64,000 bases of DNA from Poseidonia sp. Its GTDB lineage: Archaea; Thermoplasmatota; Poseidoniia; Poseidoniales; Poseidoniaceae. The notes beneath the pieces were generated by a model. That model ran no database searches, was not told the origin of the DNA, and saw only the letters and a list, made by a program, of their open reading frames with translations. Where the stretch lies: NCBI GenBank assembly GCA_049412325.1, contig JBMSEL010000005.1:2244-66243 (forward strand), read 5' to 3'. The position numbers were made by a program, and so were the translations under genes. Of this stretch, positions 3,038-49,627 are shown piece by piece (within the stretch, counting starts at the first letter, position 1; every line of letters begins with the position of its first letter).

Positions 3038-3100
3038 AAATCCGTCGACGGGCATGCATCGGCAACGAAGGTTCAAACACCCATCCGTTGACAACATCCC

Positions 3101-8394: not shown

Positions 8395-8889
8395 ATGAGT
8401 GCTTGGTTGTGGCCCACGACCGCCGACGTCGGCATGCGAGTCTTTGCCAAAAATTACGCCTCGTTGTTGGCTGAAGCAGCAGAAGGGATGCAATCGTATC
8501 TCCTGAGTGAAACAAGTGCTCGTAACTTGAACGCTTGCGTACGAAAGACTGGGGAGTGGCGGGTTCGCTCCGAACACCGTCCGGCGGATGAGGAGTTTCT
8601 CTTCCTCGCTTGGCTTGATGAACTCCTCTACAGAGCCGAAGTGCATGGGCAATGGTATGTGGATGGACAGGTTCACGTCTTACGAGAACCAGATGGATTG
8701 ACCGCTGTAGCCCAAGTCTCTTTCATTGACGCTGAGCAAGTTGAACGAGAAATCGAAATTAAAGCGGTCACCACCCATCAATTGGTGGTCGCTGAACTAC
8801 AATCAGGAGAGGTTGTGACAAGCCATTGGGATGACGTGCCGTCCTTCGAAGGTCCAGGCTGGTACGCCGATGTTGTCTTTGACATTTAA
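8395..8889 (+). CDS. archease (RtcB activator / RNA-modification chaperone)
   Basis: TTADVGMRVFA N-terminal strand (HTADxG-like) and C-terminal IKAVTTHQLVV ... ADVVFDI are typical archease signature positions. 164 aa. Confidence 0.85.
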   Translation: MSAWLWPTTADVGMRVFAKNYASLLAEAAEGMQSYLLSETSARNLNACVRKTGEWRVRSEHRPADEEFLFLAWLDELLYRAEVHGQWYVDGQVHVLREPDGLTAVAQVSFIDAEQVEREIEIKAVTTHQLVVAELQSGEVVTSHWDDVPSFEGPGWYADVVFDI

Positions 8890-9194
8890 GGTGGGAGAGC
8901 CAAGGGTGGACGTGCGCTTCGCAAGGCCAAATCCGCAGGCTTCCTCCATCCCGGATCCCCACAGCACCCATGGCCCCAGGTAGGGCTGCTCCGTTCCCGG
9001 CCTGACCTAGTCCCCCGGTTATTCACTCCCCGTTTCCTTCCGGATACGGTTCATGACACCCGAGTCATGTGGGGGCGAGACATCAACGTCCGCCTACGGG
9101 AACCCCACGGCCGCTTACGCCGCCCCAAGGCGTTCGGTCCACCATAACGACGATTTGTGATTCAGGGTACGCCGAGCTCCCCACCTATCCCACC
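8890..9194 (-). ncRNA. archaeal signal recognition particle RNA (7S/SRP RNA)
   Basis: The minus strand reads AGGUCAGGCCGGGAACGGAGCAGCC, which is the helix-8 motif with a GGAA tetraloop. The 5' GGUGGGA pairs with the 3' UCCCACC to close the molecule. About 305 nt and GC-rich, with a TATA-like box about 25 nt upstream. Only spurious ORFs cover it. Confidence 0.85.
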
Positions 9195-9213
9195 TACCGC
9201 CCGTCAGCCAGCC

Positions 9214-11299: not shown

Positions 11300-11366
11300 C
11301 ATACGTGAGGCTGCCTTTGATTCACGAAGGAGGGTTCAAGTATGGTCGTCGGTGCGCTTTCTTCAT

Positions 11367-14111
11367 ATGTCCATCGTCATCATTGCTGAGAAACCCAGCG
11401 TTGCCGAGGACCTCGCCAACGTCCTTGGTGTTGGGAAAAAAACCGAAACTCACTGGCATAGCGATGACATCATCATCACGTGGGCCATCGGACACTTGCT
11501 AGAACTCAAGTACATGGATGACTATGACCCCGCCTTCAAAAATTGGCGAGGAACGGTTGACCGTCTGCCATACATTCCAGACACCTTTCAATACAAACCC
11601 AAAAGCGGACGGGGCAAAAAACAACTCTCCGCAATCCTGAAGCTTGTCAAGGATAAATCCGTCACCGAAATTGTGAATGCTTGCGACGCAGCAAGAGAAG
11701 GCGAACTTATCTTCCGAACCATCGTTCAACATTCGAAAGTCAAAACACCCACCTCTCGAATGTGGATGCAGTCCATGACCTACGACGCGATCCTGCATGC
11801 TTTCGAGAACCGTGAACCAGGAGAAGTGTACCAGGCGCTGAGTGATGCAGCCTATTCACGCTCTCAAGCCGACTGGATCATCGGCATGAACGGATCAAGG
11901 ATTGCCACACGCCTTCCGCAAAACCGCGACCGCTCTGCAAATTCGCTCGGAAGGGTTCAAACGGCCACCCTCGCCATGGTCGTTGATCATGAATTGGAGG
12001 TGTTGTCCCACGTTCCTGTACCGTATTGGCAACTCAACGCGACCTTCACCGCAGGGGACGCACAGTGGGTCGCTCGTTGGGAACGTACAGGTCACAAAGA
12101 TGACCCCGACCGGCCAGAATACAAAGCGCATCGCATCATGGATGAAAAGGAAAAGGAAGCCATCGAATCCATGTTGGCCTCCAAAGGAGAATTTACGGTT
12201 GAAGAACAAAGTCGCACGAAAAAGGAGCAATCTCCCCTGAATTTCGACCTTACGACCTTGCAGAAGCGGGCCAACAGTATGTGGTCGTGGTCCGCCAAGC
12301 GCACACTGGGTGTTGCACAAGACCTCTATGACAAATTCAAATTGACAACCTACCCGAGAACGGACTCGAAGCATTTACCTGAAGACATGCACGAAGCCGT
12401 TGCCAAAACATTGGATCAACTTGGAGGTCAACCCGATTATTCGGAGCATGTCAAGCGGCTACAATCCGATGGACTCACCAACGCAAAACGGAATTTCAAC
12501 AACGCAAAGGTTTCCGACCACTATGCGATTGTACCAACCGGTCAAACACCACCCAAAAATTTCGGTGGAGACCACGCAAAGCTCTACGACCTCATTGCCA
12601 GAAACTTCCTTGCTTCATGGCACCCTGTTGCCGAGTGGACGGTCACGAAGCGTACTGTCACCAAAGACGGTCATCAATTCCTCAAAGAAGTTGAGGCTTT
12701 GGCCACGGCAGGATGGCGGGCAGTTGTCCCCAAAAATGACAAGGTACCTGAAGGATGGGGCAACCTACCGAGTAATCCATGCGAAGCTGCATTGGATTCG
12801 CATGAGTTCTCAGAAGAGCTGAGCAAGCCCAAGAATCGGCTTAAGGAGGCCAGCCTGCTTCAGTTGATGGAACATGCTGGAAAGCAAATTGAGGACGATG
12901 AACTTGCTGATGCCATGAAGGAAAAAGGACTAGGGACACCTGCCACACGAGCAGACACCATCGAGAAACTCCTCAATCGCAAGTATATCCGCCGCTCAAG
13001 AAACGGCACCATCAGTGCTGCACCTCATGGCATACGAATGATCGATGTCTTGCGCAGAATACCCGTTGAATGGATCACTTCTGCTGAATTGACAGGCGAC
13101 ATGGAAGCCTCCCTGCTCTCCGTTCAGCGCGGCGAAACGCCGATGAAGGACTACATGGACAGGATCATTCAACAAACGAAGTCCATGGTCGACCGTATTC
13201 GAGACCACGATCGCAACACGCTCTACCTCAACGAGAGCAGCCTCGGTGCGTGCCCATCATGCAGCGGCAACGTCATGGAGAACACCTTGGCCTACCAGTG
13301 TGAACACAATGAAGGTCGAGACAAAGGATGTTCATTCGTGTTCTGGAAAGATACTTCAGGGCGTTGGTTTGACCGGACGACGGCGACCCGATTGATCGAA
13401 TCAGGAAACCTCGAAAACCTCCACGGATTCTTTTCCCAAGCAGGCGAAGGATACGAGGCATCGATCGAGCTCAAGAAAGACGGGAAGGTCATGAGCAAGG
13501 GTTCAGGTTCGGGAGAGGCCACCGAAGATGACGAAGTCCTCTGCCCTTGTCCTGTTTGCGACCATGGTTCCATTCGAATCACCAAAACCGCTTACCTTTG
13601 CGACAATCCCGATTGCACCTTTAGAGGCATGCAGAACATCATGTGCAAGCGATTGGTAACACCAGAGGAGGCAAAACCCATCTTCACCGAGGGCAAGTCA
13701 ACCCTGCTTGAGGATTTCACCTCTCGGCGAAACAAACCGTTCAATGCATTCCTCAAACTGGAGAAGAACAGAGTAACATACGACTTCCCACCGAGAGCCG
13801 CAGCCGCAGATGCCAAGCGATTCCCAGTTGTTCCAGGCGTCGTGGCCGTATGTCCGAAAACAAAAGCCAACATCATTGAAACCGAAACTCACTACACGGT
13901 GGAAGACAGTTCCACCGATTGCAAGATTCACATTGAACGTTGCATATCGAAGCGAGACCTCACCCGAGAAGAAGCGAAAACGCTCATTGAAACAGGTTCA
14001 GTCGGGCCGTTTGACGATTTTGTCTCAAAGAAAACAAGCAATCCCTTCAGTGCATCGTTGTATCTCAAAAAGAACCAGTCCGTGGGTTACAAGTTCGCAA
14101 AACGTTCGTGA
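11367..14111 (+). CDS. topA: type IA DNA topoisomerase (topoisomerase I/III-like) with C-terminal zinc ribbons and topoisomerase C-terminal repeats
   Basis: Toprim IIAEKPSVAEDLA, WAIGHLLEL, and active-site LTTYPRTDSKHLP. Zn ribbons CPSCSGN...CEHN and CPCPVCDHG...CDNPDC. Repeats RRNKPFNAFLKLEKN and KKTSNPFSASLYLKKN. The track start 11352 is a GTG 5 codons upstream. Confidence 0.9.
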   Translation: MSIVIIAEKPSVAEDLANVLGVGKKTETHWHSDDIIITWAIGHLLELKYMDDYDPAFKNWRGTVDRLPYIPDTFQYKPKSGRGKKQLSAILKLVKDKSVTEIVNACDAAREGELIFRTIVQHSKVKTPTSRMWMQSMTYDAILHAFENREPGEVYQALSDAAYSRSQADWIIGMNGSRIATRLPQNRDRSANSLGRVQTATLAMVVDHELEVLSHVPVPYWQLNATFTAGDAQWVARWERTGHKDDPDRPEYKAHRIMDEKEKEAIESMLASKGEFTVEEQSRTKKEQSPLNFDLTTLQKRANSMWSWSAKRTLGVAQDLYDKFKLTTYPRTDSKHLPEDMHEAVAKTLDQLGGQPDYSEHVKRLQSDGLTNAKRNFNNAKVSDHYAIVPTGQTPPKNFGGDHAKLYDLIARNFLASWHPVAEWTVTKRTVTKDGHQFLKEVEALATAGWRAVVPKNDKVPEGWGNLPSNPCEAALDSHEFSEELSKPKNRLKEASLLQLMEHAGKQIEDDELADAMKEKGLGTPATRADTIEKLLNRKYIRRSRNGTISAAPHGIRMIDVLRRIPVEWITSAELTGDMEASLLSVQRGETPMKDYMDRIIQQTKSMVDRIRDHDRNTLYLNESSLGACPSCSGNVMENTLAYQCEHNEGRDKGCSFVFWKDTSGRWFDRTTATRLIESGNLENLHGFFSQAGEGYEASIELKKDGKVMSKGSGSGEATEDDEVLCPCPVCDHGSIRITKTAYLCDNPDCTFRGMQNIMCKRLVTPEEAKPIFTEGKSTLLEDFTSRRNKPFNAFLKLEKNRVTYDFPPRAAAADAKRFPVVPGVVAVCPKTKANIIETETHYTVEDSSTDCKIHIERCISKRDLTREEAKTLIETGSVGPFDDFVSKKTSNPFSASLYLKKNQSVGYKFAKRS

Positions 14112-14127
14112 TAACGCCACGAACGAA

Positions 14128-14150
14128 GGAAGGTTGAAACAATACCTTCC
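14128..14150 (+). terminator. hairpin after topA stop (GGAAGGT-N9-ACCTTCC)
   Basis: A 7-bp inverted repeat read directly, 17 nt downstream of the TGA at 14109-14111. Function is not established. Confidence 0.25.
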
Positions 14151-37198: not shown

Positions 37199-37351
37199 GC
37201 CACCACCTCAACACTTGCGAGGCAGGAGTCCTTCAAAGCCTTACCTTCCTTGCGAGCCAAAACCAAAACGATTCCAATCAACGCCGACGGGTTGAAATGA
37301 TGTCCCACATCCGCAGAGTTGGACCCACCTCATTGACCGAGGCGGGGCCAG

Positions 37352-39854: not shown

Positions 39855-40985
39855 TTATTCTTCTCCGAAGAGTGTGGTTTGGCGGGATGGTGGCATCTCC
39901 AATTGACCCAATCGAAAGCCGATCAACCGGACCCGACTTTCAGGTCGGATGTTGGTCGCAAAGAGTTGCTTCGCCAAGCGTTTGAACACAGCCTCATCGT
40001 CCATGGCAACAGGGATACTCCGCCCGCTCGTGTGCGTCTCAAAGCCAGTGTAGCGAATTTTCACCTCACCCAAGCGGCCGGAAACGCCGAGATTGCGAGC
40101 TCGTTCCATCACCAAATCCACGAGCGTATCCAACCTCGCAAGCACATCCTCGTGGTCGTCAAGATCCTGCTCAAACGTGTGCTCCTTCCCGATGGATTTC
40201 CTGCTGCGAAGCGGACTGACCACCGCACTGCTTTCACCTTCGACCACTCGCATGAACCAGGTCGCGAACCGGTCTCCTGCCAAACGTGCCAGGGAGAGTT
40301 CACCTAACGCATACAATTCATCTGCCGTGGTGTAGCCCCACTCTGCCAGTTGCGTTGCACGCTTGGGCCCGATACCGGGGACGTCCCTGAGGGAACGGCC
40401 CTCAAAAAACGATGAAACTTCATCGGGCATCACGCGATGAATCCCGTTGGGTTTGTTCACTTCACTCGACATTTTCGCGACAATGCGTGTCGGCCCGATG
40501 CCAAAGGAAGCGGTTAGGTTCACCCGTTTTTTGATCTCCCGCTGCAGTTGATTCGCCAGGGCCAAGGCTGCATCCCAATCTCCACCAACGGTTTCTGTCA
40601 CGTCCATGTAGGCTTCATCGATGCTGGCTTTTTCAAACAGGACCGCAGGTTCTCGCAGACATGCCATGACTTTTCGACTCGCTCGACTGTACAGACCCCG
40701 CGTACCACGGATGTAGATGGCTGGTCCGAACGGGGCAGCAGGGCAACGTCGCCACGCTTCTGAGACGGGCATGGCGGACCGTATGCCAAATGTCCGTGCT
40801 GCGTAATTGCATGTGGAAACAATACCCCGTCCACGACCTTGCTTTGGGTCCGAACCAATGATGAGGGGGACCTCGCTGTCGAAGCCATGGTGGAGCGTTT
40901 CCACCGCCGCAAAGAACGCATCGAGGTCACAATGAATCAACACGCGAGGCCCCTCTGCCTCAACGGCCATCGACTCCTCAACCAC
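39855..40985 (-). CDS. dinB: Y-family DNA polymerase IV (DinB/Dpo4-like)
   Basis: VLIHCDLDAFFAAVE, STCNYAARTFGIRSAMP, SIDEAYMDVT, and LRDVPGIGPK. Confidence 0.9.
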   Translation of the reverse strand: MVEESMAVEAEGPRVLIHCDLDAFFAAVETLHHGFDSEVPLIIGSDPKQGRGRGIVSTCNYAARTFGIRSAMPVSEAWRRCPAAPFGPAIYIRGTRGLYSRASRKVMACLREPAVLFEKASIDEAYMDVTETVGGDWDAALALANQLQREIKKRVNLTASFGIGPTRIVAKMSSEVNKPNGIHRVMPDEVSSFFEGRSLRDVPGIGPKRATQLAEWGYTTADELYALGELSLARLAGDRFATWFMRVVEGESSAVVSPLRSRKSIGKEHTFEQDLDDHEDVLARLDTLVDLVMERARNLGVSGRLGEVKIRYTGFETHTSGRSIPVAMDDEAVFKRLAKQLFATNIRPESRVRLIGFRLGQLEMPPSRQTTLFGEE

Positions 40986-41044
40986 GATGATACAAACACG
41001 CCAGCGGTGTTTGAACTTGATGTGTGTTCAGTTCAAGTTGAGGG

Positions 41045-41872
41045 GTGTTCACAAGCATAGATGACCTCCGAGAGCGACCTTCGATGATTGACATGAAGCG
41101 AGATCTTGGCACCACTGTGGGAAGGAACATCGGACTTGTGCGGCGCACACAGGGCATTGACCCATCCCAAATTCAACCGCAAGCGGGTCAACTGTACCAC
41201 CTCAGCGGACCGGGGCGTTCGGGCAAGAGCATGCGTTGTATTGCCGAGCATTGGGTTGCCCACGCATTGGCTCAAGGACAAACTGTCCACTGGGTGGACG
41301 GTGCTTGCAGAATCGACCCTGCACGGTTCATTCCACTTCTCGAAGCGATGGGGGCCAAGGTTGAACCGTGCCTGTCACGGCTCTATCTCAGTCGAGGATT
41401 CACGCTGCATCAACTCGACCGGCAACTGGAACGGCTACCCGATGAATTGGCCATCACACGTTCACCAATGGTGGTGGTGGACGGGTTGTTGGCCATGCAC
41501 GGCGACGACGCCATCTCTTCGCTGGAATCACGCACCCTTCTTCGACGGCACGTGAAGATCCTGCAAAATCTCGCCCACCAACATCACGCAGCCGTCGTCG
41601 CCATCACCGGGCTCGACCACGGCCCATCTGAAAGTGCACGCCATGTGAAGCATGTGAGGCGCCATTCGCAAAATCACCTTGAAGGCGCATGGCGGGGTCG
41701 ACGGCGGCAACGGTTGCTGCATGTCGTTCATCGACGAAGTGGCCTCCAAGGTGCTTGGCAGCCCTTCCATCGAGACCCACAGACTGCTTTTTTACTCCCG
41801 AAACGACGACTCAATCGTCAAGAGGTGGCTTCATCGGTTGGGGTTCTTGCGTTGCATCATACTGAGTCGTGA
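41045..41872 (+). CDS. RecA-superfamily ATPase, RadB-like, with Arg/His-rich C-terminal tail
   Basis: GTG start 59 nt from the dinB ATG. Walker A LSGPGRSGKS, then VHWVDGACRIDPARF and the Walker B-like strand MVVVDGLLAMHG. Its 3' end overlaps the polB 3' end by 62 nt. Confidence 0.65.
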   Translation: MFTSIDDLRERPSMIDMKRDLGTTVGRNIGLVRRTQGIDPSQIQPQAGQLYHLSGPGRSGKSMRCIAEHWVAHALAQGQTVHWVDGACRIDPARFIPLLEAMGAKVEPCLSRLYLSRGFTLHQLDRQLERLPDELAITRSPMVVVDGLLAMHGDDAISSLESRTLLRRHVKILQNLAHQHHAAVVAITGLDHGPSESARHVKHVRRHSQNHLEGAWRGRRRQRLLHVVHRRSGLQGAWQPFHRDPQTAFLLPKRRLNRQEVASSVGVLALHHTES

Positions 41873-44324
41873 ACGCAAATAACGTGGGTTGTCGACCGTC
41901 GTTTCGCAGTTGGTCCGTGGTCCAACCAAATGGAGCGAGGAGCGCCCAAATGGCACGTTCTGCCAATTCAGCGTAGTGTTCGACACACGCATGAACACCG
42001 TCCGGCAACGAATCCAATTCTTCTGCAAGAACCACGCGGTCGAGCAAGGCATGTGAATCACGGTTCATGACCACGTAGCGAACTTTTCCTCCAGCAGGGA
42101 CCTCGTACCCGCGTTCGTTGGCTCGCATGAGGGCGGCGTAGGTCACGTTCTTGACGCGATAGTCACTCAGTGAGCGGCTGGTTCGGCGGGTGATCACCAG
42201 TTCACTCAGCGGAATTTCGCCCTGTTCCAACCGCTGGAGTTCACACCTGTAGTGATTCAAGACAGTGCGCTGCGTTTCAAACGAGGGAAGCCCCTCCTTG
42301 CGTTGACCTGCTGCGAGGTATTCCAATCCAACGCGCTGCAACCGTTGAATCCAGATTGGCGTCGAATGTTGTCGCATCTCAATCCCGCGGACTTTGAACG
42401 AATCGCCATCATACGCCCAGTACTTTGTCAATGAACCGGACCCGTGGACCCGGCTAGGAAGAAACGCAATGAACTCGTAGTGCGCCTCGAACTCGAGAGG
42501 AATACCGACCTGTTCAGAGATGCGGGAAGCAAACGCCTCGGCGTCCACCCGTTGCTGGTGCTTCGTTCGCCCTTGCGTATCCGAAAGCCAAACGCAGTCG
42601 ACGATGGCATGGAGGACATCCCATCCGTCCTTTTGGGCCTCTTCAATGGTGGTCAATAAGAGGTCTCGAGACCACGCACAAATCGCTTCATGCGCTTCAA
42701 TCCGACCAAACCGGGCGTTTCGATAACCGGTATAACCAAAACACGTGACCAGCAGCCACTTGAGTGCGTTTTGTCGCAGGTCAAAGGCGTCGCCTTTCTG
42801 TTGACGTTGATGCTTCAATTCACATCGTCGCTCGATGATGGGTGCCACGACACGCCCGAGAAAACCGTGCGTTCTCCCACACGTGTGCATGTTGAGCCCC
42901 GGTACGGCAAGGGCTTTCTCGTGAGCGAGTGGGAAAAGACCATGTCCGAAACGAGCGTGAACCGACCGTTGCCGAAATTCGTTGGCGGCTTGTTCTGGAT
43001 GGAGCGGCACAATGCCTCGCATGGATGCCGAAGTCGGTGGTTGACAGCACGAACAATTCAGGGTCTCAGGCGAGATGTTCCGTGTGGCGATGATGCTCGG
43101 AAACAGGCTCGCAAAATCAAGTTCAATCACCGATGCATGGACGCCAGGGCGACTGTCAAGGTACAGGCCTCCTCGGTCGGCTTGTAAGAGATCCAGTGCC
43201 GATTTCGTGTCTTCGGGACGATTTTTCTTCCAAGGTACGAGCACACCGTCGTCCATGGCCACGCGCATTTGAATGGCACTGATCACCGAGCCCGGAGAAA
43301 GTCGGGAGATGATTTGAGCCGATTGACGCGAGTGCTGAGCGAGCTCGAAAAGACCGGAAAGACCTCCTTCGCTCACGATGAAACTGTTCTTGAGATCGAT
43401 GTGGAGGCGGCCGTTGAGAAAAAAGGCTCCGTGGCGATGCCGAGTTTGGCCGTAGGAGTGGACCGTGCGTTGGTTGGTCGTTTGCTGAAGCGATTCCGAT
43501 GTTCGCCCCAACACCATCGGCTGACCGTGAAGCATCCCTTGCTCAACCAACCATGGAAACCAGCGCTGATCACCCCCCTCCGTGAGAAGAATGTCCGGAT
43601 CCATCGCATCATACGCTGCCTGAACAGCGACCAACATGGACGCCATGGAACCATGTTCAGAACGTCTGATGGTCAATGAACGAAGTGGCTGTCGCGGTGA
43701 AATACCGGGCTCGTGAACTGTTTCCAAACGAAACCACTCCACGGTGTCATGGAGGGTCGGTAGCCCTTGGCCAGAGGTGCGTTTCACGGCCATTTTGACA
43801 ACGTGAAACGGAGGGTAGACCTCACTTTTTGAGTGGTTTGAGCACATTGACAAACGCGTTGACTCATCAGCGGACCACCGTACTCGACCAAAGGGTATGC
43901 ATTCGTGGTCGTTGAGGAATCGCTGGGCTAAGTGCGCGTCGACAGAATAGAGTTTGAAACGGTGAAAATCCCCCCGTGCTTCAATGTGTTCAGCCAGTCC
44001 ACGAACATGCTGGAACGACTGGAGACCGACTTCAAGAACATCGCTTTGGCCATCGGCTTCCAAATCCAAACGCGCTCGCGTCATGTGAGGTTGGTTGAGG
44101 GTGAAACGCTGCTGAATTTCAGGCTGTTCGAGCCAGTGCTCCAACCGGTTGAGGTCGGTATGCGATGCGTGAACATGGATCACCGGTTGCCATGGAACTG
44201 CACACGCATGGGCGAGACCGTCGTCGTCAATCACCCAGGCTGTCATACCGGTGTTGTCCTTGTTCGCATGAACGTCAAGAAGCCATCCTTCAATCATCGC
44301 CATGCCGTTCCTCAAGGACTTCAA
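41811..44324 (-). CDS. polB: family B DNA polymerase with degenerate 3'-5' exonuclease motifs and altered motif C (PolB2-like)
   Basis: Motif A LDFASLFPSIIATRNISPETL, motif B region RQNALKWLLVTCFGYTGY, and motif C position LHAIVDCVW. Exo I/II positions read VVKMAV and GGDQRWFPWL. Likely start at ATG 44303 or 44297 (MAMIEGW). Confidence 0.85.
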   Translation of the reverse strand: MKSLRNGMAMIEGWLLDVHANKDNTGMTAWVIDDDGLAHACAVPWQPVIHVHASHTDLNRLEHWLEQPEIQQRFTLNQPHMTRARLDLEADGQSDVLEVGLQSFQHVRGLAEHIEARGDFHRFKLYSVDAHLAQRFLNDHECIPFGRVRWSADESTRLSMCSNHSKSEVYPPFHVVKMAVKRTSGQGLPTLHDTVEWFRLETVHEPGISPRQPLRSLTIRRSEHGSMASMLVAVQAAYDAMDPDILLTEGGDQRWFPWLVEQGMLHGQPMVLGRTSESLQQTTNQRTVHSYGQTRHRHGAFFLNGRLHIDLKNSFIVSEGGLSGLFELAQHSRQSAQIISRLSPGSVISAIQMRVAMDDGVLVPWKKNRPEDTKSALDLLQADRGGLYLDSRPGVHASVIELDFASLFPSIIATRNISPETLNCSCCQPPTSASMRGIVPLHPEQAANEFRQRSVHARFGHGLFPLAHEKALAVPGLNMHTCGRTHGFLGRVVAPIIERRCELKHQRQQKGDAFDLRQNALKWLLVTCFGYTGYRNARFGRIEAHEAICAWSRDLLLTTIEEAQKDGWDVLHAIVDCVWLSDTQGRTKHQQRVDAEAFASRISEQVGIPLEFEAHYEFIAFLPSRVHGSGSLTKYWAYDGDSFKVRGIEMRQHSTPIWIQRLQRVGLEYLAAGQRKEGLPSFETQRTVLNHYRCELQRLEQGEIPLSELVITRRTSRSLSDYRVKNVTYAALMRANERGYEVPAGGKVRYVVMNRDSHALLDRVVLAEELDSLPDGVHACVEHYAELAERAIWALLAPFGWTTDQLRNDGRQPTLFAFTTQYDATQEPQPMKPPLDD

Positions 44325-44532
44325 GCCGGGCAGAAAGCCGCGTCAGTTCGGACATCAATCCGACCAGCATGCTGAGCACGGCTGGCTGCCATGTGTTCAA
44401 CGTCGGAAGAAGACCTCCAGCGGTCCTTCGCTCGCGCACTTCGTTAAGCAAGGCATCAAACGCCTCGCGATCACTCGGATTCAAGGCGCGACGGTACGGG
44501 GCCAAGTTCTGCAGTTCACTCTCAACACGCAT
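44290..44532 (-). CDS. small conserved-looking hypothetical protein translationally coupled to polB
   Basis: MRVESELQNLAPYRRALNPSDREAFDALLNEVRERR... Its stop (gat gat tga) overlaps the polB atg att gaa. The track ORF extends to 44637, but that would overlap the serA-like 3' end. Confidence 0.5.
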   Translation of the reverse strand: MRVESELQNLAPYRRALNPSDREAFDALLNEVRERRTAGGLLPTLNTWQPAVLSMLVGLMSELTRLSARLEVLEERHGDD

Positions 44533-44623
44533 TCGCCATGACGGTACACTTCGACCCATACCAGCGTGTGGGCCAAGAAGCAAGGGATGCTTATCCGAGA
44601 CCCAGTTGTTGAAAGTGAAAGTG

Positions 44624-45607
44624 CTAGAGGTGATCACGGTTCACGACAAAGTCACATGCCACACCGTTGAGAACATCCATGACGTTGGCGGCAATGTCCA
44701 TTCCAACACGCCCTTGGGCTTCAACGGTGGACGCCCCAATGTGCGGTGTACCGTGAAAGTGTTCCATCTGAAGCAACGGATGGTCGGGGTCCACCGGTTC
44801 TTGTTCAAACACATCGAGAGCAGCGGAAGTGAGAACACCGGACTGAAGCGCCTCCAAAACGGCGTGCTCATCGACGATGCCACCGCGAGCGCAATTGACG
44901 ATGTGGCTTCCACACCGAGCACCGTCCTTACCGATGTGCGGCATCGATGCCAAGCGCTCAGCGTTGACCAAATGGTGCGTCTCGTCCGTTAAATTGCAGT
45001 GGATGGACACGTGGGTGCAGTTCGAGAACAGTGCGTCCACCGTTTTGTGCAGACGCGTGCCTTGTGCTTTAGCAATCTTCGGAGGGAGGTACGGGTCGTA
45101 GGCATGAACCTCCATGCCGATGGCTTGAGCGATGCGGCCGACCGATTGAGCGATCCTCCCAAACCCGATGAGGCCGAGGGCTTTGCCGGAAAGTTCTGAG
45201 CCTGTCATCGCTTTCTTTTCCCACCGTCCTTCTCGCAGAGAGCGGTCTGCCCGGGGAAGATGGCGAATGGACGCAAGAAGATGTCCAAGGGTCAGTTCAA
45301 CCACGGATTGAGTGCTGGCGCGAGGAGCGTTGACGACACGAATGCCTCGTGTTCCGGCCGCCGCCAGGTCAATGTTGTCGACGCCGACACCGGCACGACC
45401 GATCACCTTGAGGCGGTCACCGGAGGCTTCGATCACTTCGGCAGGAAGTTTGGTTGCACTTCGGATGATGATGGCGTCAAAGTCCGCCAGTGCCCCAGCG
45501 AGAAGATCGGAGGCGGTGATGTGTTCGACCACGACCTCGTGACCGGCTTTCTTGAGGCGTTGAACGGCCTTTTCATCCATCCCATCGGTCACGGCAATTC
45601 TGGCCAT
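44624..45607 (-). CDS. serA: D-isomer-specific 2-hydroxyacid dehydrogenase (short D-3-phosphoglycerate dehydrogenase-like, no ACT domain)
   Basis: Start set at ATG 45607 (MARIAVTDGMDEKAV). GLIGFGRIAQSVG NAD fold, NCARGGIVDE, and HIGAST. The upstream 137 codons of the track ORF are antisense to a real + strand gene. Confidence 0.8.
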   Translation of the reverse strand: MARIAVTDGMDEKAVQRLKKAGHEVVVEHITASDLLAGALADFDAIIIRSATKLPAEVIEASGDRLKVIGRAGVGVDNIDLAAAGTRGIRVVNAPRASTQSVVELTLGHLLASIRHLPRADRSLREGRWEKKAMTGSELSGKALGLIGFGRIAQSVGRIAQAIGMEVHAYDPYLPPKIAKAQGTRLHKTVDALFSNCTHVSIHCNLTDETHHLVNAERLASMPHIGKDGARCGSHIVNCARGGIVDEHAVLEALQSGVLTSAALDVFEQEPVDPDHPLLQMEHFHGTPHIGASTVEAQGRVGMDIAANVMDVLNGVACDFVVNRDHL

Positions 45608-45708
45608 GGTCGGTGGGTCTCCCGAGGGTGTTAGAACATTGGGTTTGTGGCGGAAATGAACCGCTGTTTTCAACAACCCCTGATGAGTGGCGTGGATGAG
45701 GAAGGTCA

Positions 45709-46863
45709 ATGGAATCTGGTCTGCAAGAGTTGCTTTGGGGGGCAGGTATCCTCGCCCTCCCGTTACTTCTTGCCTTGCCGATGAGGCTTGCTTGGCAATT
45801 TTGGGTCGGGGTTGGCCATGAGGTGTCCGAGTACAGAACGATCGTTCGACAAATTGTCGATTCAGGGCATCAAGTGGCTTCCTTTTCGCAAACCTTGGAT
45901 GACATCGCTCGCAACCTCCGCATCCCTCCAGCCAAGCAGCGGCTGATCGAGGCTGAATTGCTTCACCCGCTGACGCTGTCACACTTTTTGCTCCTGCCTG
46001 CGCTCTTGATTCTGCCACTTTCAGCCATCATGGCCTTGCCCCTGATTCTCCTAGGATTTCCCTTCATGCTCTTCATGGAATACCTCTTGATTCGACGCCG
46101 CCTGTTGATTTTGGCGCTCAAGACCATCGAACGCCTCTTGCACTGGCAAGTCATTCACATCCCGAAACCGCATCGTGGAAACAAAGAACAGCGTCGTTCA
46201 CTGACGGAGTTCTCTCAGCACATTGAACATTTCAACTACGTCCCACAGGCTGCGTTCTTGGGGTTATTTGCTTGGCTCATTGTGCACTGGGTCTTGGACC
46301 TGGATTCTTGGACCATTGAACTCATCGTGTCCTCTTTTCTTTACATGGTCCTGCTGTCCATTCTCTCGGTGCTGAACACTGCGTTTGAGGCTGACCTCGT
46401 CTTTGTGGACCCTGCAAAAGGACGGCTCGTCCCGGTGAATCAATGGCTTGAGGGGGTGCTCAATCCTGTTGTGGGCATCGGATTGCTGTTCCTGTTGGGT
46501 CGAAACCTGCTTGAGGAATCTCGAGATGTTGATGGAAACCCTATCCTCTTTGCCACGGTCGTCCTCACGCTTCTGTACGGTGCGGCCATCGTCGGCCTCT
46601 CCTACCGATGGGGTTATTCTTCATGGAGAGGAGAGCGAGTCCGCCAGGACTTCGAAGTCCAAGTCATCGACTACCTCAACCCACTTTCCTACGACCTCAC
46701 CCGAACCAAGGGGCGCATCGATTTCAACGTTCGAATGGGCATGGATGAGCGGCTCACCGACTTTGATACGGCTGCACCGCAGCAGTTGAGTTTCGAGGAA
46801 TTACAGAATTTGCCAAGCATCCCGCTCGACACCAAGGCTCCGGACAATCCATTGAAGAAGTGA
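45709..46863 (+). CDS. hypothetical polytopic membrane protein
   Basis: 384-aa ORF with about 7 hydrophobic helices (for example LLLPALLILPLSAIMALPLILLGFPFMLF). No motif recognised. Confidence 0.6.
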   Translation: MESGLQELLWGAGILALPLLLALPMRLAWQFWVGVGHEVSEYRTIVRQIVDSGHQVASFSQTLDDIARNLRIPPAKQRLIEAELLHPLTLSHFLLLPALLILPLSAIMALPLILLGFPFMLFMEYLLIRRRLLILALKTIERLLHWQVIHIPKPHRGNKEQRRSLTEFSQHIEHFNYVPQAAFLGLFAWLIVHWVLDLDSWTIELIVSSFLYMVLLSILSVLNTAFEADLVFVDPAKGRLVPVNQWLEGVLNPVVGIGLLFLLGRNLLEESRDVDGNPILFATVVLTLLYGAAIVGLSYRWGYSSWRGERVRQDFEVQVIDYLNPLSYDLTRTKGRIDFNVRMGMDERLTDFDTAAPQQLSFEELQNLPSIPLDTKAPDNPLKK

Positions 46864-46865
46864 TC

Positions 46866-47576
46866 TCAGTCAAGCCAAGGGATGCGTTCGGGCAACTCAC
46901 CAAACAGGTTGGCGGGAATCGCTGTCTTGATCTTTGATACGCTTCCGAGTTTGGCCGCTGTTTCATCTTGCCAGGCCTTGAATTCATCATAGGAGGTCAT
47001 CGATAAAACCGGGTTGTGTTTCCGGTTCCAGTCCAGCGACATCATCTCGGTACCGGGGGGGTCATGCCCCGAGCACACCACCGTAGAGCCTTCGAATCGC
47101 GAGAGAACCTGAAGGGCGTCCCAGTGCACGTGAATCCGACCACTTGGCAAATCATCTCGACCGACACCACCTGCGCCATTGAACAGGAAATCACCTGTCA
47201 TCATGTAGCCGGGAACATGGACGATCATCGAATCGTTGGTGTGACCGGGGGCAGCGTGGAATTGAATGGGAATGGAACCGAGCATGATTTTCTCTTCGTC
47301 GTCAACGTGCATGGTCACGCCGAGGCTCGCCGTCTCGGTTGACATGACGTACGCACAGTCGTACATCGCTTGCAAGCTGAAACACGCTGTGATGTGGTCG
47401 GCATGCGTGTGGGTCGCAATGACATAGACCAACGTAAGGCCATCATTCTTGAGGAGGTCAACATACTGTTGCATGAAATCGTACACCGGGTCCACCAAGG
47501 CCGCTTCCTTCGTGGCCTCATCCACGATCAAATACGTCATCGCCCAACCTCCCTCATTCAACTGTTCGAAGCGCAT
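46866..47576 (-). CDS. MBL-fold metallo-hydrolase
   Basis: Start set at ATG 47576 (MRFEQLNEGGW). VIATHTHADHITA (HxHxDH), APGHTNDS, and CSGHD. Confidence 0.8.
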   Translation of the reverse strand: MRFEQLNEGGWAMTYLIVDEATKEAALVDPVYDFMQQYVDLLKNDGLTLVYVIATHTHADHITACFSLQAMYDCAYVMSTETASLGVTMHVDDEEKIMLGSIPIQFHAAPGHTNDSMIVHVPGYMMTGDFLFNGAGGVGRDDLPSGRIHVHWDALQVLSRFEGSTVVCSGHDPPGTEMMSLDWNRKHNPVLSMTSYDEFKAWQDETAAKLGSVSKIKTAIPANLFGELPERIPWLD

Positions 47577-47655
47577 GGTTGAGCCGAGAGATAGGAGTGA
47601 TTTGAAGGTTGATGTCAGGGCATTCATCATATACCGTCGTCGTGGTTGTTTGGCC

Positions 47656-48861
47656 ATGACAGCCCTCATAGAATACGGACTTCTCCTCGTAGGCCTTGCC
47701 ATCGGTGCTTCGGTTGGGTGGCTCCTCGCGAAGCAATCGTTTTCTGGCCAACTGATCCGTGCTGAAGAACGCCTCCGGGCCAACGAAGCCAGTGCAGTTG
47801 GAAACGAACAACGAATTCGGGCCGAGGTTGAAAACATCGCCATCAAAATCGGTGAGGAAAACTCAGCCCGCTTCCTTGAGATGGCGCAAGCCAAACTTGT
47901 CAATCAGCAACAAGATGCTACGCATGAGTTGGAACTTCGCAAATTGGAGGTCGCCAACCTTGTCAAACCCATTCAAGAAGAGATGGCCAAACTCACCGTG
48001 ATGAACGCAGAAATGGAAAAAGAACGTGCGGGAGCGTACGAAGGTATCAAGCGGCACCTCAAGGAATTAGGAGAAAAAACAGAATCGCTTTCCACCCGCA
48101 CGACGGCGCTTTCGACTGCGTTGACCACCTCGAGCCAAGCACGAGGGAATTGGGGCGAAGTGAAACTCCGGCGTTTGTTCGAGATGGCTGGGATGAGTGA
48201 AAACATCGATTTTGATGAACAAGCCACCCTCGCTGACGGCAGTCGGCCAGACTTCGTGGTTCGCTTGCCGGACAGCGGTGTCATCCCGATTGATTCCAAA
48301 GCAACCGGAGCCCATTTTCTGCAAGCGGCTGAGCTTGAGCCCGGAGACGAGCAGACCATGTTGCTCAAGAAACATGCCAAAGCCATGCGAGGGAGAATTG
48401 CGGAACTCAGCAAGAAGGCCTATCAAGAAACCATTGAAGGCGAATTCGATCATGTCGTGATGTTCGTCCCAAGCGAAGCCATGGCGGCTGCAGCCTTTTC
48501 TATGGATGCCGAATTGATGGATTATGCCATGAGCAAGTCTGTTCTCATTGCCACACCTGTCACGATGCTTGGTTTGTTGAGAACCGTGGCGCTGTACTGG
48601 CAACAGCATGCGCTGGCTGAAGGTGCGAACGAAATCTACGAAGTCTCACGAGAACTCTACAAGCGAGTGAATACGACGATGGACCACTTTGTGAAGGTTG
48701 GTGGGCACCTTAGCAAAGCAGCCAAGGCTTACGACGCTACGATGAATTCATACGGACGACGCGTCTTACCTCAGGCTCGGCGATTGGAAGAACTCAAGGT
48801 GTCTGAAACGTTGCAATCAACACTCCCCGAACCAACGGAAATCGAGTATCCCAAAGAATGA
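47656..48861 (+). CDS. rmuC: DNA recombination protein RmuC
   Basis: Start set at ATG 47656 (MTALIEYGLLLVGLAIG anchor). Coiled coil, then RGNWGEVKLRRLFEMAGM, RPDFVVRLPDSGVIPIDSK, and MFVPSEA. Confidence 0.85.
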   Translation: MTALIEYGLLLVGLAIGASVGWLLAKQSFSGQLIRAEERLRANEASAVGNEQRIRAEVENIAIKIGEENSARFLEMAQAKLVNQQQDATHELELRKLEVANLVKPIQEEMAKLTVMNAEMEKERAGAYEGIKRHLKELGEKTESLSTRTTALSTALTTSSQARGNWGEVKLRRLFEMAGMSENIDFDEQATLADGSRPDFVVRLPDSGVIPIDSKATGAHFLQAAELEPGDEQTMLLKKHAKAMRGRIAELSKKAYQETIEGEFDHVVMFVPSEAMAAAAFSMDAELMDYAMSKSVLIATPVTMLGLLRTVALYWQQHALAEGANEIYEVSRELYKRVNTTMDHFVKVGGHLSKAAKAYDATMNSYGRRVLPQARRLEELKVSETLQSTLPEPTEIEYPKE

Positions 48862-48907: not shown

Positions 48908-49627
48908 ATGCACCCCTCCGAGGTCATCTACTTGGAGCATGACGGCAAGGTGCTGCTGGTTGATGAATCTGGAAATGGACCACGACAACCCGTGAAAGGT
49001 CGGGCGACTGGGGGCACCGAACTTCGGTTCCCGACCCGTAAGGAAGTCGAGGCGTTGGGCATTGAATTCACGGAAAAAAACCATCTCTGCCTCCGATACA
49101 ATGAGGATGAATTCCATGTCAAGAAAGCGTACCCGCTGATGGACTGGCCGAAGGATTGGGCATGGAAAGATGCGTGCGTCTCTGACAACGCTGTCCATCC
49201 CGTGGCCCGTGATGCCATCTATCGGTCCATTCATCGGCTTGTATCGAAAGTGATGGTGTGCAACCAAACCGGTGATGTGCTCATGGCCAAGGTTGAGCGT
49301 GGTCATTTCAGGGGATTCTGGACGCTCCCTGGAGGATACATGGACCACGACGAACATCCAGCCGTCGGGTGTGTTCGCGAAACACTCGAGGAACTCGGAC
49401 TCAACATCGTCCTTGATGATATGGAACCCGTTGTCACGCAGAACATCTTCAACGACGAAGGCATCTCCTTCGTTTCGTTCACCTATCGCTCAACATGGAA
49501 CGGGAAGTTGAACGAACTCACACTGCAAACTGAAGAAATCTCTGAAGCCGCATGGTTTTCACCAACGGAAGCCTTCAACCAAGCGGTTTCGTACTTCGAT
49601 CGAGAGGCCCTTCGAAGCCTGTTATGA
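48908..49627 (+). CDS. NUDIX hydrolase with extra N-terminal domain
   Basis: Nudix box GGYMDHDEHPAVGCVRETLEELGL in the C-terminal half. Confidence 0.8.
   Translation: MHPSEVIYLEHDGKVLLVDESGNGPRQPVKGRATGGTELRFPTRKEVEALGIEFTEKNHLCLRYNEDEFHVKKAYPLMDWPKDWAWKDACVSDNAVHPVARDAIYRSIHRLVSKVMVCNQTGDVLMAKVERGHFRGFWTLPGGYMDHDEHPAVGCVRETLEELGLNIVLDDMEPVVTQNIFNDEGISFVSFTYRSTWNGKLNELTLQTEEISEAAWFSPTEAFNQAVSYFDREALRSLL

Follow-up and report, generated by a model that had tools for sequence, protein, structure and literature searches.

Do a Y-family polymerase gene (dinB), a RecA-fold ATPase gene, a family-B polymerase gene and a small open reading frame (ORF), lying side by side in a marine archaeon, form one lesion-bypass unit, and is such a unit new for this lineage? 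The question arose at positions 39855-44637 of a 64,000-nt stretch of Poseidonia sp. DNA (assembly GCA_049412325.1, contig JBMSEL010000005.1; hereafter the window). The first-pass annotation, made from the sequence alone, had proposed that the four genes are functionally linked in damage tolerance, as a unit not described as such for this lineage. Our analysis indicates that three of them, encoding the catalytic subunit PolB2, the small subunit PPB2 and the RadA-like protein iRadA, very probably make up a translesion mutasome of the PolB2 type in a member of the marine Group II archaea (Poseidoniales). dinB is a long-standing syntenic neighbour with no demonstrable part in this unit.

Membership in the PolB2 mutasome family

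An operon of PolB2, an inactivated RadA and arCOG07300 was described in 2014 by Makarova et al. (PMC4104785). The name "PolB2 mutasome" denotes PolB2 together with a small helical protein, PPB2 (formerly arCOG07300), and iRadA (Timinskas, Timinskas & Venclovas 2025, PMC11791011). The supplement of the latter paper places the Poseidoniales entries MBL6742770-72 and EHR76800-02 in operon group "3b (PPB2-PolB2-iRadA)", and Poseidoniales orthologues were modelled there as heteropentamers with AF-Multimer (ranking scores 0.83-0.87). Because the operon was published in 2014, Poseidoniales complexes were modelled in 2025 and Table S1 of the 2025 paper lists the neighbourhood, the claim of novelty for the lineage does not hold. 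The three flagged genes are an ordinary member of an already published system.

Direct comparison with the published PolB2, iRadA and PPB2 sequences settled this membership. The window ATPase was 53% identical to published iRadA MBL6742772 (E 2e-86), and the iRadA family profile matched the iRadA proteins of Methanomassiliicoccus (65 bits) and Halorubrum (45 bits). Residues 11-409 of the polymerase showed 58% identity to published Poseidonia PolB2 and 28-48% identity to five published PolB2s (marine Group II, Halorubrum, Methanomassiliicoccus, Archaeoglobus and Acidianus). No replicative PolB was aligned in a single-sequence search with the N-terminal 400 residues. The small ORF encodes a protein 56% identical to published Poseidonia PPB2 MBL6742770, and its family profile matched 7/7 published PPB2s compared. 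The N-terminal arm of this protein, MGRSVPSWR (encoded at 44533-44559), carries R3 and R9 and is invariant in the alignment; the form MGR[ST]VPxWR was present in 70/70 relatives. No Pfam or NCBIfam match to the small ORF was obtained in our scan, for which the Pfam release predates PF26485. All 52 PPB2 homologues (P0067-P0118) carry the precomputed accession PF26485.1, indicating that the family is already curated.

Structure prediction agreed with these assignments. The AlphaFold2 (AF2) model of the ATPase has a RAD51/RadA core fold (core pLDDT >90, disordered termini; top Foldseek matches RAD51/RadA, E ~2e-11), and that of PPB2 consists of three helices (7-25, 28-47 and 57-88) with a free N-terminal arm.

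The iRadA alignment was scanned against one genome per GTDB species. This yielded 79 loci, nearly all in Poseidoniales-type metagenome-assembled genomes (MAGs); the titles of two records name bacterial bins, in one case of Verrucomicrobiales. Convergent PolB2 and PPB2 genes followed iRadA in 76/76 loci with enough flank. The three-gene arrangement is not due to chance, since its core recurs at every one of these informative Poseidoniales loci. With this recurrence and the homology to the published trio, the earlier proposal of a mutasome-like unit was upheld for three of its genes: the ATPase gene, the gene of the exonuclease-dead PolB and the small ORF coupled to it, which form a conserved unit.

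The loci fell into two groups. Group A (48 loci, iRadA identity 41-88%) showed the syntenic order MMPL-valS-dinB-iRadA-PolB2-PPB2-serA-like-membrane protein-MBL-rmuC (MBL, metallo-beta-lactamase fold). In group B (31 loci, iRadA identity 37-43%), the three-gene core lay in variable contexts, and no dinB, valS or serA-like gene was found within 9 kb.

Catalytic and ATP sites of the subunits

The family-B polymerase matched PF00136 in the Pfam scan, which gave no match to the exonuclease domain PF03104 anywhere in the 837 aa. Exo I and Exo II were placed with a PolB2 N-terminal profile rather than by single-sequence alignment; no alignment of Exo III was obtained. At Exo II, NxxxFD is changed to GGDQRW, with N replaced by G and D by W at the N210/D215 equivalents, and the Exo I-equivalent segment HVVKMAVKRTSG contains no Asp or Glu. 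These findings bear out the earlier remark that the proofreading motifs are lost. Motif A is kept (LDFASLFPS). In motif C, LHAIVDCVW aligns to YSDTDG of Thermococcus PolB, a change of DTD to IVD, and IVD or VVD was found in 72/76 relatives. The D(K/R) motif reads ADRGG and is preceded by VLVPWKKNRPEDTKSALDLLQ (whole stretch VLVPWKKNRPEDTKSALDLLQADRGG); xxDRGG was present in 72/76 relatives. The IVD motif C, the motif A Asp and the identity to published PolB2s assign the enzyme to the PolB2/Dpo2 group, to which the first-pass annotation had compared it.

Replacement of the first motif C Asp by Ile, together with the missing exonuclease site, could also mean that PolB2 is catalytically inactive and serves a regulatory or replication-initiation role instead of translesion synthesis. 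This was the view of 2014, when regulatory and origin-related roles were raised (PMC4104785). However, Dpo2 of S. islandicus has the same IxD substitution and is nevertheless an active, damage-induced extender required for targeted mutagenesis (PMC8721586). All Poseidoniales copies moreover conserve the Asp of motif A, the second Asp of motif C and the fingers/palm segment. We consider an inactive PolB2 quite improbable and retain translesion synthesis as its probable function.

iRadA comprises a RadA/Rad51 core without the N-terminal domain. The Walker A motif GPGRSGKS and the MVVVDG strand noted earlier were confirmed, the former at residues 55-62 of the 275-aa ORF and the latter containing D146; in the window protein both Walker A and the Walker B Asp are intact. 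In the profile alignment, the invariant VHWVDGACRIDP of iRadA lies opposite xxYVDTEGGFxPER of RadB/RadA, so the position of the catalytic Glu is occupied by Ala. This replacement (DTE to DGA; DGAC) was found in 79/79 iRadA relatives, and the Gln sensor is absent. Walker A was canonical in only 43/77 relatives; its Lys/Ser were replaced in the other 34, with Lys changed to Arg, Ala, Ser or Gly in several clades. Because the catalytic Glu is gone and Walker A and B are kept, the ATP site of the window protein is only partly decayed. For the same reason, this iRadA may bind nucleotide and should not hydrolyse it.

The first-pass annotation had called the ATPase RadB-like. An ordinary RadB, or an active RadA-like mediator, might lie beside a polymerase gene by chance (compare radB-polD of Pyrococcus). 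RadB likewise has no N-terminal domain, RadB of T. kodakarensis was the best sequence match among solved structures (27.6 bits), TIGR02237 and PF08423 gave weak matches, and Walker A and B are intact in the window copy. Nevertheless, the score for TIGR02237, the RadB equivalog model, was 28.5 bits, far under the cutoff of 172.4. The catalytic Glu of DTE is Ala throughout the family, Walker A residues are replaced in almost half of the relatives, the published iRadAs match far more strongly than any RadB, and the ATPase adjoined PolB2-PPB2 at all 76 informative loci. The RadB label was therefore rejected in favour of iRadA, and we regard an ordinary RadB or active mediator as extremely unlikely.

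A conserved Qx(S/T)L(L/F)xF or KxTLFDF motif lies just before the PolB2 C-terminal tail and reads RQPTLFAF in the window copy. The C-terminus of DinB (39855-39885) reads SRQTTLFGEE, a case of SRQTTLF(E/G)EE; its QxxLF form resembles bacterial beta-clamp motifs. To judge from sequence, the two are plausibly clamp-binding peptides of similar form.

We propose the following mechanism, drawn from published models and from Sulfolobus Dpo2. PolB2, a B-family polymerase with a dead exonuclease that retains the Asp of motif A and the second Asp of motif C, would bind iRadA via a loop mimicking the RadA oligomerisation motif. One of the N-terminal MGR(S/T) arms of a PPB2 trimer would reach in between PolB2 and iRadA, beside DNA. 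The resulting PolB2:iRadA:PPB2(3) complex would extend distorted or mismatched primer ends past lesions, and would probably be recruited to PCNA via the Qx(S/T)L(L/F)xF motif that PolB2 carries close to its C-terminus. In Poseidoniales, the genes are divided between two transcription units that converge from opposite strands, one with iRadA and one with PPB2-PolB2, and have overlapping 3' ends; this overlap and the occurrence of the same promoter element in most lineages suggest coordinated control. DinB is an independent, catalytically intact enzyme whose gene has a housekeeping-type promoter and adjoins the cassette slot; it may act as an inserter ahead of PolB2.

dinB as neighbour and promoter elements

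The dinB product matched Pfam IMS and IMS_C and the NCBIfam Pol IV model (262 bits, cutoff 256); its best NCBIfam model was PRK02406. The catalytic motifs HCDLDAFF and SIDEAY are present, and the catalytic triad is intact. To compare dinB loci, we searched DinB against metagenomes and obtained 66 Poseidoniales-type loci with usable flank (within L080-L159). The cassette lay between the serA-like gene and dinB at 29/66 of these loci. At the other 37 it was absent, and the serA-like gene directly abutted dinB with a gap of 46-1491 bp (examples of this slot polymorphism: L090 2066-2168, L111 2439-2540). Thus, the three genes are present or absent together at one fixed position, and dinB is retained in either state. 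The results of the iRadA- and dinB-anchored surveys match the group 3b neighbours of the published Table S1: IMS 46/95, 2-Hacid_dh_C 45, tRNA-synt_1 42 and Lactamase_B 32 (PMC11791011). The IMS association is not discussed in the main text of that paper.

Cassette-free sites L091-L098 carry a remnant of a PPB2-type promoter directly after the serA-like stop, which points to cassette loss. At sites with a gap of ~316 bp (L091 385-701, L094 4727-5043, L096 4451-4743), this remnant reads CACTTTCACTT...GGGTC...AAAGAT, and an ORF runs in frame into dinB. At remnant sites, dinB is now possibly placed behind a PPB2-type promoter.

dinB might still be part of one selected, co-regulated four-gene unit with iRadA, PolB2 and PPB2, in which DinB inserts and the PolB2 complex extends, as the first-pass annotation had supposed in making it a fourth member. 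dinB adjoins the cassette over deep divergence (dinB identity 64-94%, PolB2 43-89%), an IMS gene is a neighbour in nearly half of the published group 3b operons, and dinB runs in the same direction as PPB2-PolB2 and diverges from iRadA over a short spacer. An RQxTLF-type C-terminal motif occurs in both DinB and PolB2, and sequential action of Dpo4 and Dpo2 was shown in Sulfolobus, where Dpo2 is an extender acting after the Y-family Dpo4 (PMC8721586). However, each component occurs without the other: the cassette is missing at 37/66 dinB loci, and for 31/79 cassettes no dinB lies within 9 kb. The two sit together inside a ~15-kb syntenic block (MMPL, valS, serA-like, MBL, rmuC), and their adjacency, being part of this larger synteny, gives no independent evidence for a DinB-PolB2 partnership. 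The dinB promoter is of the generic TTCAAACACC type, lacks the cassette motif at 47/47 loci and is unchanged, like dinB itself, in cassette-bearing and cassette-free genomes. We consider a four-gene unit unlikely, and keep dinB as a neighbour of the three-gene mutasome. An inserter/extender partnership of DinB and PolB2 is plausible by analogy with the Sulfolobus biochemistry (PMC8721586).

A promoter-like box, RGGTTCAAA / GGTTGAAA, occurs ~25-35 nt before many start codons of the window (e.g. at 3065-3078, 11330-11340, 14125-14135 and 37290-37300) and looks like a general-purpose TATA-like promoter of this genome, serving leaderless or short-leader mRNAs. A conserved inverted repeat in the dinB-iRadA spacer (TTGAACT / AGTTCAA) was considered as a shared operator. 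This reading was rejected because each arm matches the generic box; the repeat is merely two back-to-back TATA-like promoters.

The promoter of PPB2-PolB2 is of a different type. ACTTTCACTTTCA sits directly after the serA-like stop, its end lies 50 nt upstream of the PPB2 ATG, and the motif is unique in the 64-kb window. A triple TTCA-N2 repeat proved both too loose and too insensitive as a descriptor and was replaced by TTTCACTTTCA, whose best match within 150 nt upstream of each gene was counted. With at most one mismatch, TTTCACTTTCA was found upstream of PPB2 in 33/45 group A and 15/25 group B loci (48/70 in total), and upstream of iRadA in 12/26 group B and 0/48 group A loci. The corresponding counts were 0/47 for dinB and 0/593 for control regions upstream of other genes at the same loci. 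When two mismatches were allowed, the counts were 21/25 for PPB2 in group B, 23/26 for iRadA in group B, 11/48 for iRadA in group A, 0/47 for dinB and 11/593 for the controls. The form upstream of iRadA in group A, TTCAGTTCAAG...GGGGTGT, is conserved within that group. In further metagenome lineages (L100-L108, L135, L151), TTTCACTTTCA followed by GGGTC occurred at approximately -58 to -67 before both PPB2 and iRadA.

The PPB2 promoter sequence ACTTTCACTTTC consists of two tandem ANTTTC hexamers, 51-62 nt upstream of the ATG. In Sulfolobales, ANTTTC is the damage-response element bound by Orc1-2; it lies at -23 to -55 and is needed for induction (PMC6061795). The likeness is a short-motif resemblance, not a demonstrated relationship. 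It raises the tentative and rather doubtful suggestion that a tandem ANTTTC-like element (TTTCACTTTCA plus GGGTC) drives both units and, if read by a regulator such as an Orc1/Cdc6 paralogue, marks a damage regulon common to Thermoproteota and marine Group II. If this were true, the TTTCACTTTCA element would be a sequence handle for finding other members of the regulon, and the half-decayed, often intact P-loop of iRadA could mark a nucleotide-binding, non-hydrolysing regulatory subunit.

Gene layout, chromosomal setting and known systems

The four ORFs named in the first-pass annotation were all present at their given positions (Table 1). The 59-bp divergent spacer between dinB and the ATPase gene (41045-40985-1) and the 62-nt convergent overlap (41872-41811+1) were reproduced with the longest-ORF coordinates. 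The start of the PolB ORF overlaps the stop of the small ORF, as had been reported, within ATGGCGATGATTGA (context ...CATGGCGATGATTGA); by this start/stop overlap, PPB2 and PolB2 are translationally coupled. The small ORF, given earlier as ~80 aa, encodes neither that length nor 115 aa: translation from the internal ATG at 44559 (MGRSVPSWR), a start conserved in 70/70 relatives, gives 89 aa. For the ATPase, the most likely start codon is ATG 41084, in agreement with most database homologues; to judge from this, the real dinB-ATPase spacer would be ~98-113 bp. The most likely PolB start is ATG 44303 or 44297, which agrees with the N-terminus MTIEGWLLDV of published Poseidonia PolB2.

Table 1. 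Positions of genes, motifs and promoter regions at the PolB2 mutasome locus (coordinates of the window)
Feature	Position	Strand	Remarks
dinB	39855-40985	-	376 aa; Y-family Pol IV-type polymerase
dinB TATA-like promoter	41006-41018	read on -	AAGTTCAAACACC; matches the genome's generic form; conserved in cassette-free loci
iRadA promoter region	41027-41048	+	TTCAGTTCAAG then GGGGTGT; degenerate, one base shorter than the PPB2 element
iRadA (RecA-fold ORF), longest ORF	41045-41872	+	GTG start, 275 aa
iRadA, likely protein	41084-41872	+	262 aa
iRadA P-loop GPGRSGKS	41207-41230	+
iRadA Ala87	41303-41305	+	catalytic-Glu position
iRadA/PolB2 tail-to-tail coding overlap	41811-41872		62 nt
PolB2 catalytic subunit	41811-44324	-	longest ORF, 837 aa
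PolB2 QPTLFAF, similar to a PCNA-interacting peptide (PIP)	41871-41891	-	residues 812-818
PolB2 motif C IVD	42597-42605	-	residues 574-576
PolB2 motif A Asp403	43116-43118	-
PolB2 putative iRadA-binding region and ADRGG	43167-43244	-	residues 361-386; by sequence motif
PolB2 Exo II remnant	43548-43601	-	ORF residues 242-259
PPB2 (arCOG07300, "partner of PolB2"), ORF	44290-44637	-
PPB2, protein	44290-44559	-	89 aa
PPB2-PolB2 promoter region	44587-44622	-	ACTTTCACTTTCA 44610-44622, GGGTCT 44598-44603, AAGCAT 44587-44592

The 3' overlap of iRadA and PolB2, computed across loci from conserved motifs, was greater than zero in 81/88 loci, with modes of 62 and 60 nt. It spans only the poorly conserved C-terminal tails of the two proteins and starts directly after the PIP-like motif of PolB2. 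Extra DNA between PolB2 and iRadA replaces the overlap in two lineages (~2.3 kb at L108 2849-5200; ~0.2-0.3 kb at L102 4812-5128).

The window is an archaeal chromosome segment. It contains an archaeal signal recognition particle (SRP) RNA at 8889-9195 (minus strand, 132 bits), two tRNAs and a topoisomerase I gene at 11352-14111 (plus strand); the SRP RNA and the topoisomerase I gene confirm an ordinary chromosomal, non-mobile context. The nearest homologues of its genes are in MAGs named Poseidonia, Poseidoniales or Thermoplasmatota, i.e. marine Group II archaea. Housekeeping genes surround the locus and encode TatC, tRNA-intron endonuclease, dihydroorotate dehydrogenase, topoisomerase I, serine hydroxymethyltransferase, an MMPL transporter, valyl- and alanyl-tRNA synthetases and RtcB. 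The GC content was slightly raised across the locus (0.55-0.57, versus ~0.53 elsewhere in the window). A mobile-element origin of the cassette was considered and rejected: the neighbours are housekeeping genes, and no integrase or other mobile-element gene was found in the window, in which terminal repeats were not searched for.

The serA-like (phosphoglycerate dehydrogenase-type) ORF at 44624-46018 (minus strand) is over-extended. The phosphoglycerate dehydrogenase model begins at residue 140, and the first ~310 nt of the ORF overlap an opposite-strand 384-aa membrane-protein ORF at 45709-46863 (plus strand). Genes for an MBL-fold protein (46866-47903, minus strand), the DNA recombination family protein RmuC (47449-48861, plus strand) and a NUDIX hydrolase (48908-49627, plus strand) lie no more than 5 kb from the cassette. 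In group A loci, synteny with the cassette includes the MBL and RmuC genes; because the two long ORFs overlap, at least one start is mis-set. In some group B genomes, the product of the gene beside PPB2 begins with a DNA_photolyase N-terminal domain (27.8 bits, cutoff 26.6), fused to an amine-oxidase/FAD domain, as at L050 (12513-14843, minus strand). A gene at L069 (12460-14271, minus strand) has an N-terminus similar to that of the L050 gene, and carotenoid-type genes lie further along. By their predicted domains, these neighbourhoods are light- and damage-related, unlike that of the window.

Several points weigh against the identification of the locus as a translesion mutasome with the mechanism and control set out above. 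The mechanism is transferred from Sulfolobus and in-silico models. The window iRadA has a canonical Walker A, whereas published iRadA was described as lacking ATP-site residues, and the putative PIP-like motif of PolB2 was assigned by pattern only. The loci were drawn from contigs of MAGs and metagenomes and are not independent of one another in phylogeny, so that the counts overstate the number of independent events. The window's own clade carries only a degenerate iRadA motif, and alignment of the iRadA and PPB2 promoters within the window was not significant (score 15, versus a shuffled mean of 17.3); the claim of a shared motif therefore rests on other lineages. Finally, the TTTCACTTTCA motif could be an unusual TATA box or TFB-recognition element (BRE) rather than a regulator site.

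Because the locus rediscovers a published system, it contributes little beyond one further Poseidoniales example. Features that may be unreported, and would be incremental, are the convergent overlapping layout (81/88), the shared promoter element, the half-decayed P-loop and the presence/absence polymorphism. Marine Group II archaea are abundant in the sunlit ocean and uncultured, and they carry an archaeal type of damage-induced mutasome beside a conventional DinB; this is relevant to the tolerance of UV damage and the generation of mutations in archaea of the surface ocean. The cassette polymorphism at a fixed slot offers a clean comparative handle, with and without the mutasome in an otherwise syntenic background, and the shared promoter element is a concrete lead to damage-responsive regulation in Poseidoniales.

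The published PolB2 mutasome is the closest known system. The locus shares with it the three families, the IxD motif C, D(K/R)GG, the dead exonuclease, the MGR(S/T) arm, the RadA core without N-terminal domain and catalytic Glu, and the gene order PPB2-PolB2-iRadA; Poseidoniales orthologues were published with the same IMS, tRNA-synt_1, 2-Hacid_dh_C and Lactamase_B neighbours. In contrast to the published genes, which are mostly co-oriented (PMC11791011), iRadA of the window lies on the opposite strand in tail-to-tail overlap with PolB2, and it keeps a canonical Walker A/B. The clamp motif, reported on either PolB2 or iRadA (PMC11791011), is here on PolB2 and not on iRadA. No orc1/cdc6 gene was found within the 64-kb window, in which the locus again differs from the published system, although the published group 3b neighbourhoods have none either (PMC11791011). 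We saw no description of the shared promoter element in that paper. Archaeal RadB, the best solved-structure match, is a similarly short RadA-core protein without N-terminal domain; it differs from the window protein in family score, in the catalytic Glu and in its context, polD rather than PolB2-PPB2.

Among bacterial systems, E. coli Pol V (UmuD'2C-RecA-ATP) also joins a translesion polymerase to a RecA/Rad51-family protomer via an oligomerisation-like motif and has a small oligomeric subunit with an N-terminal arm. However, the catalytic subunit here is B-family rather than Y-family, the helical PPB2 is not an S24 peptidase-derived UmuD', and the RecA-family partner is a dead paralogue dedicated to the complex, whereas Pol V uses the recombinase of the cell. 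No S24/UmuD protein is present, and the UmuC model NF002955 scored only 45 bits (cutoff 431). ImuA-ImuB-DnaE2 (ImuC) likewise combines a RecA-fold accessory protein with an error-prone replicative-type polymerase, is linked to damage tolerance and has a Y-family gene nearby. The polymerase here is B-family and not C-family, PPB2 has no homology to any Imu protein, and DinB lies outside the cassette with intact catalytic residues, whereas ImuB, also of the Y family, is an adaptor that is catalytically dead. Eukaryotic Pol zeta (Rev3-Rev7(2)-Pol31-Pol32), whose accessory subunits are unrelated to those of the archaeal system, resembles it as a multisubunit, exonuclease-dead B-family extender that acts after a Y-family inserter.

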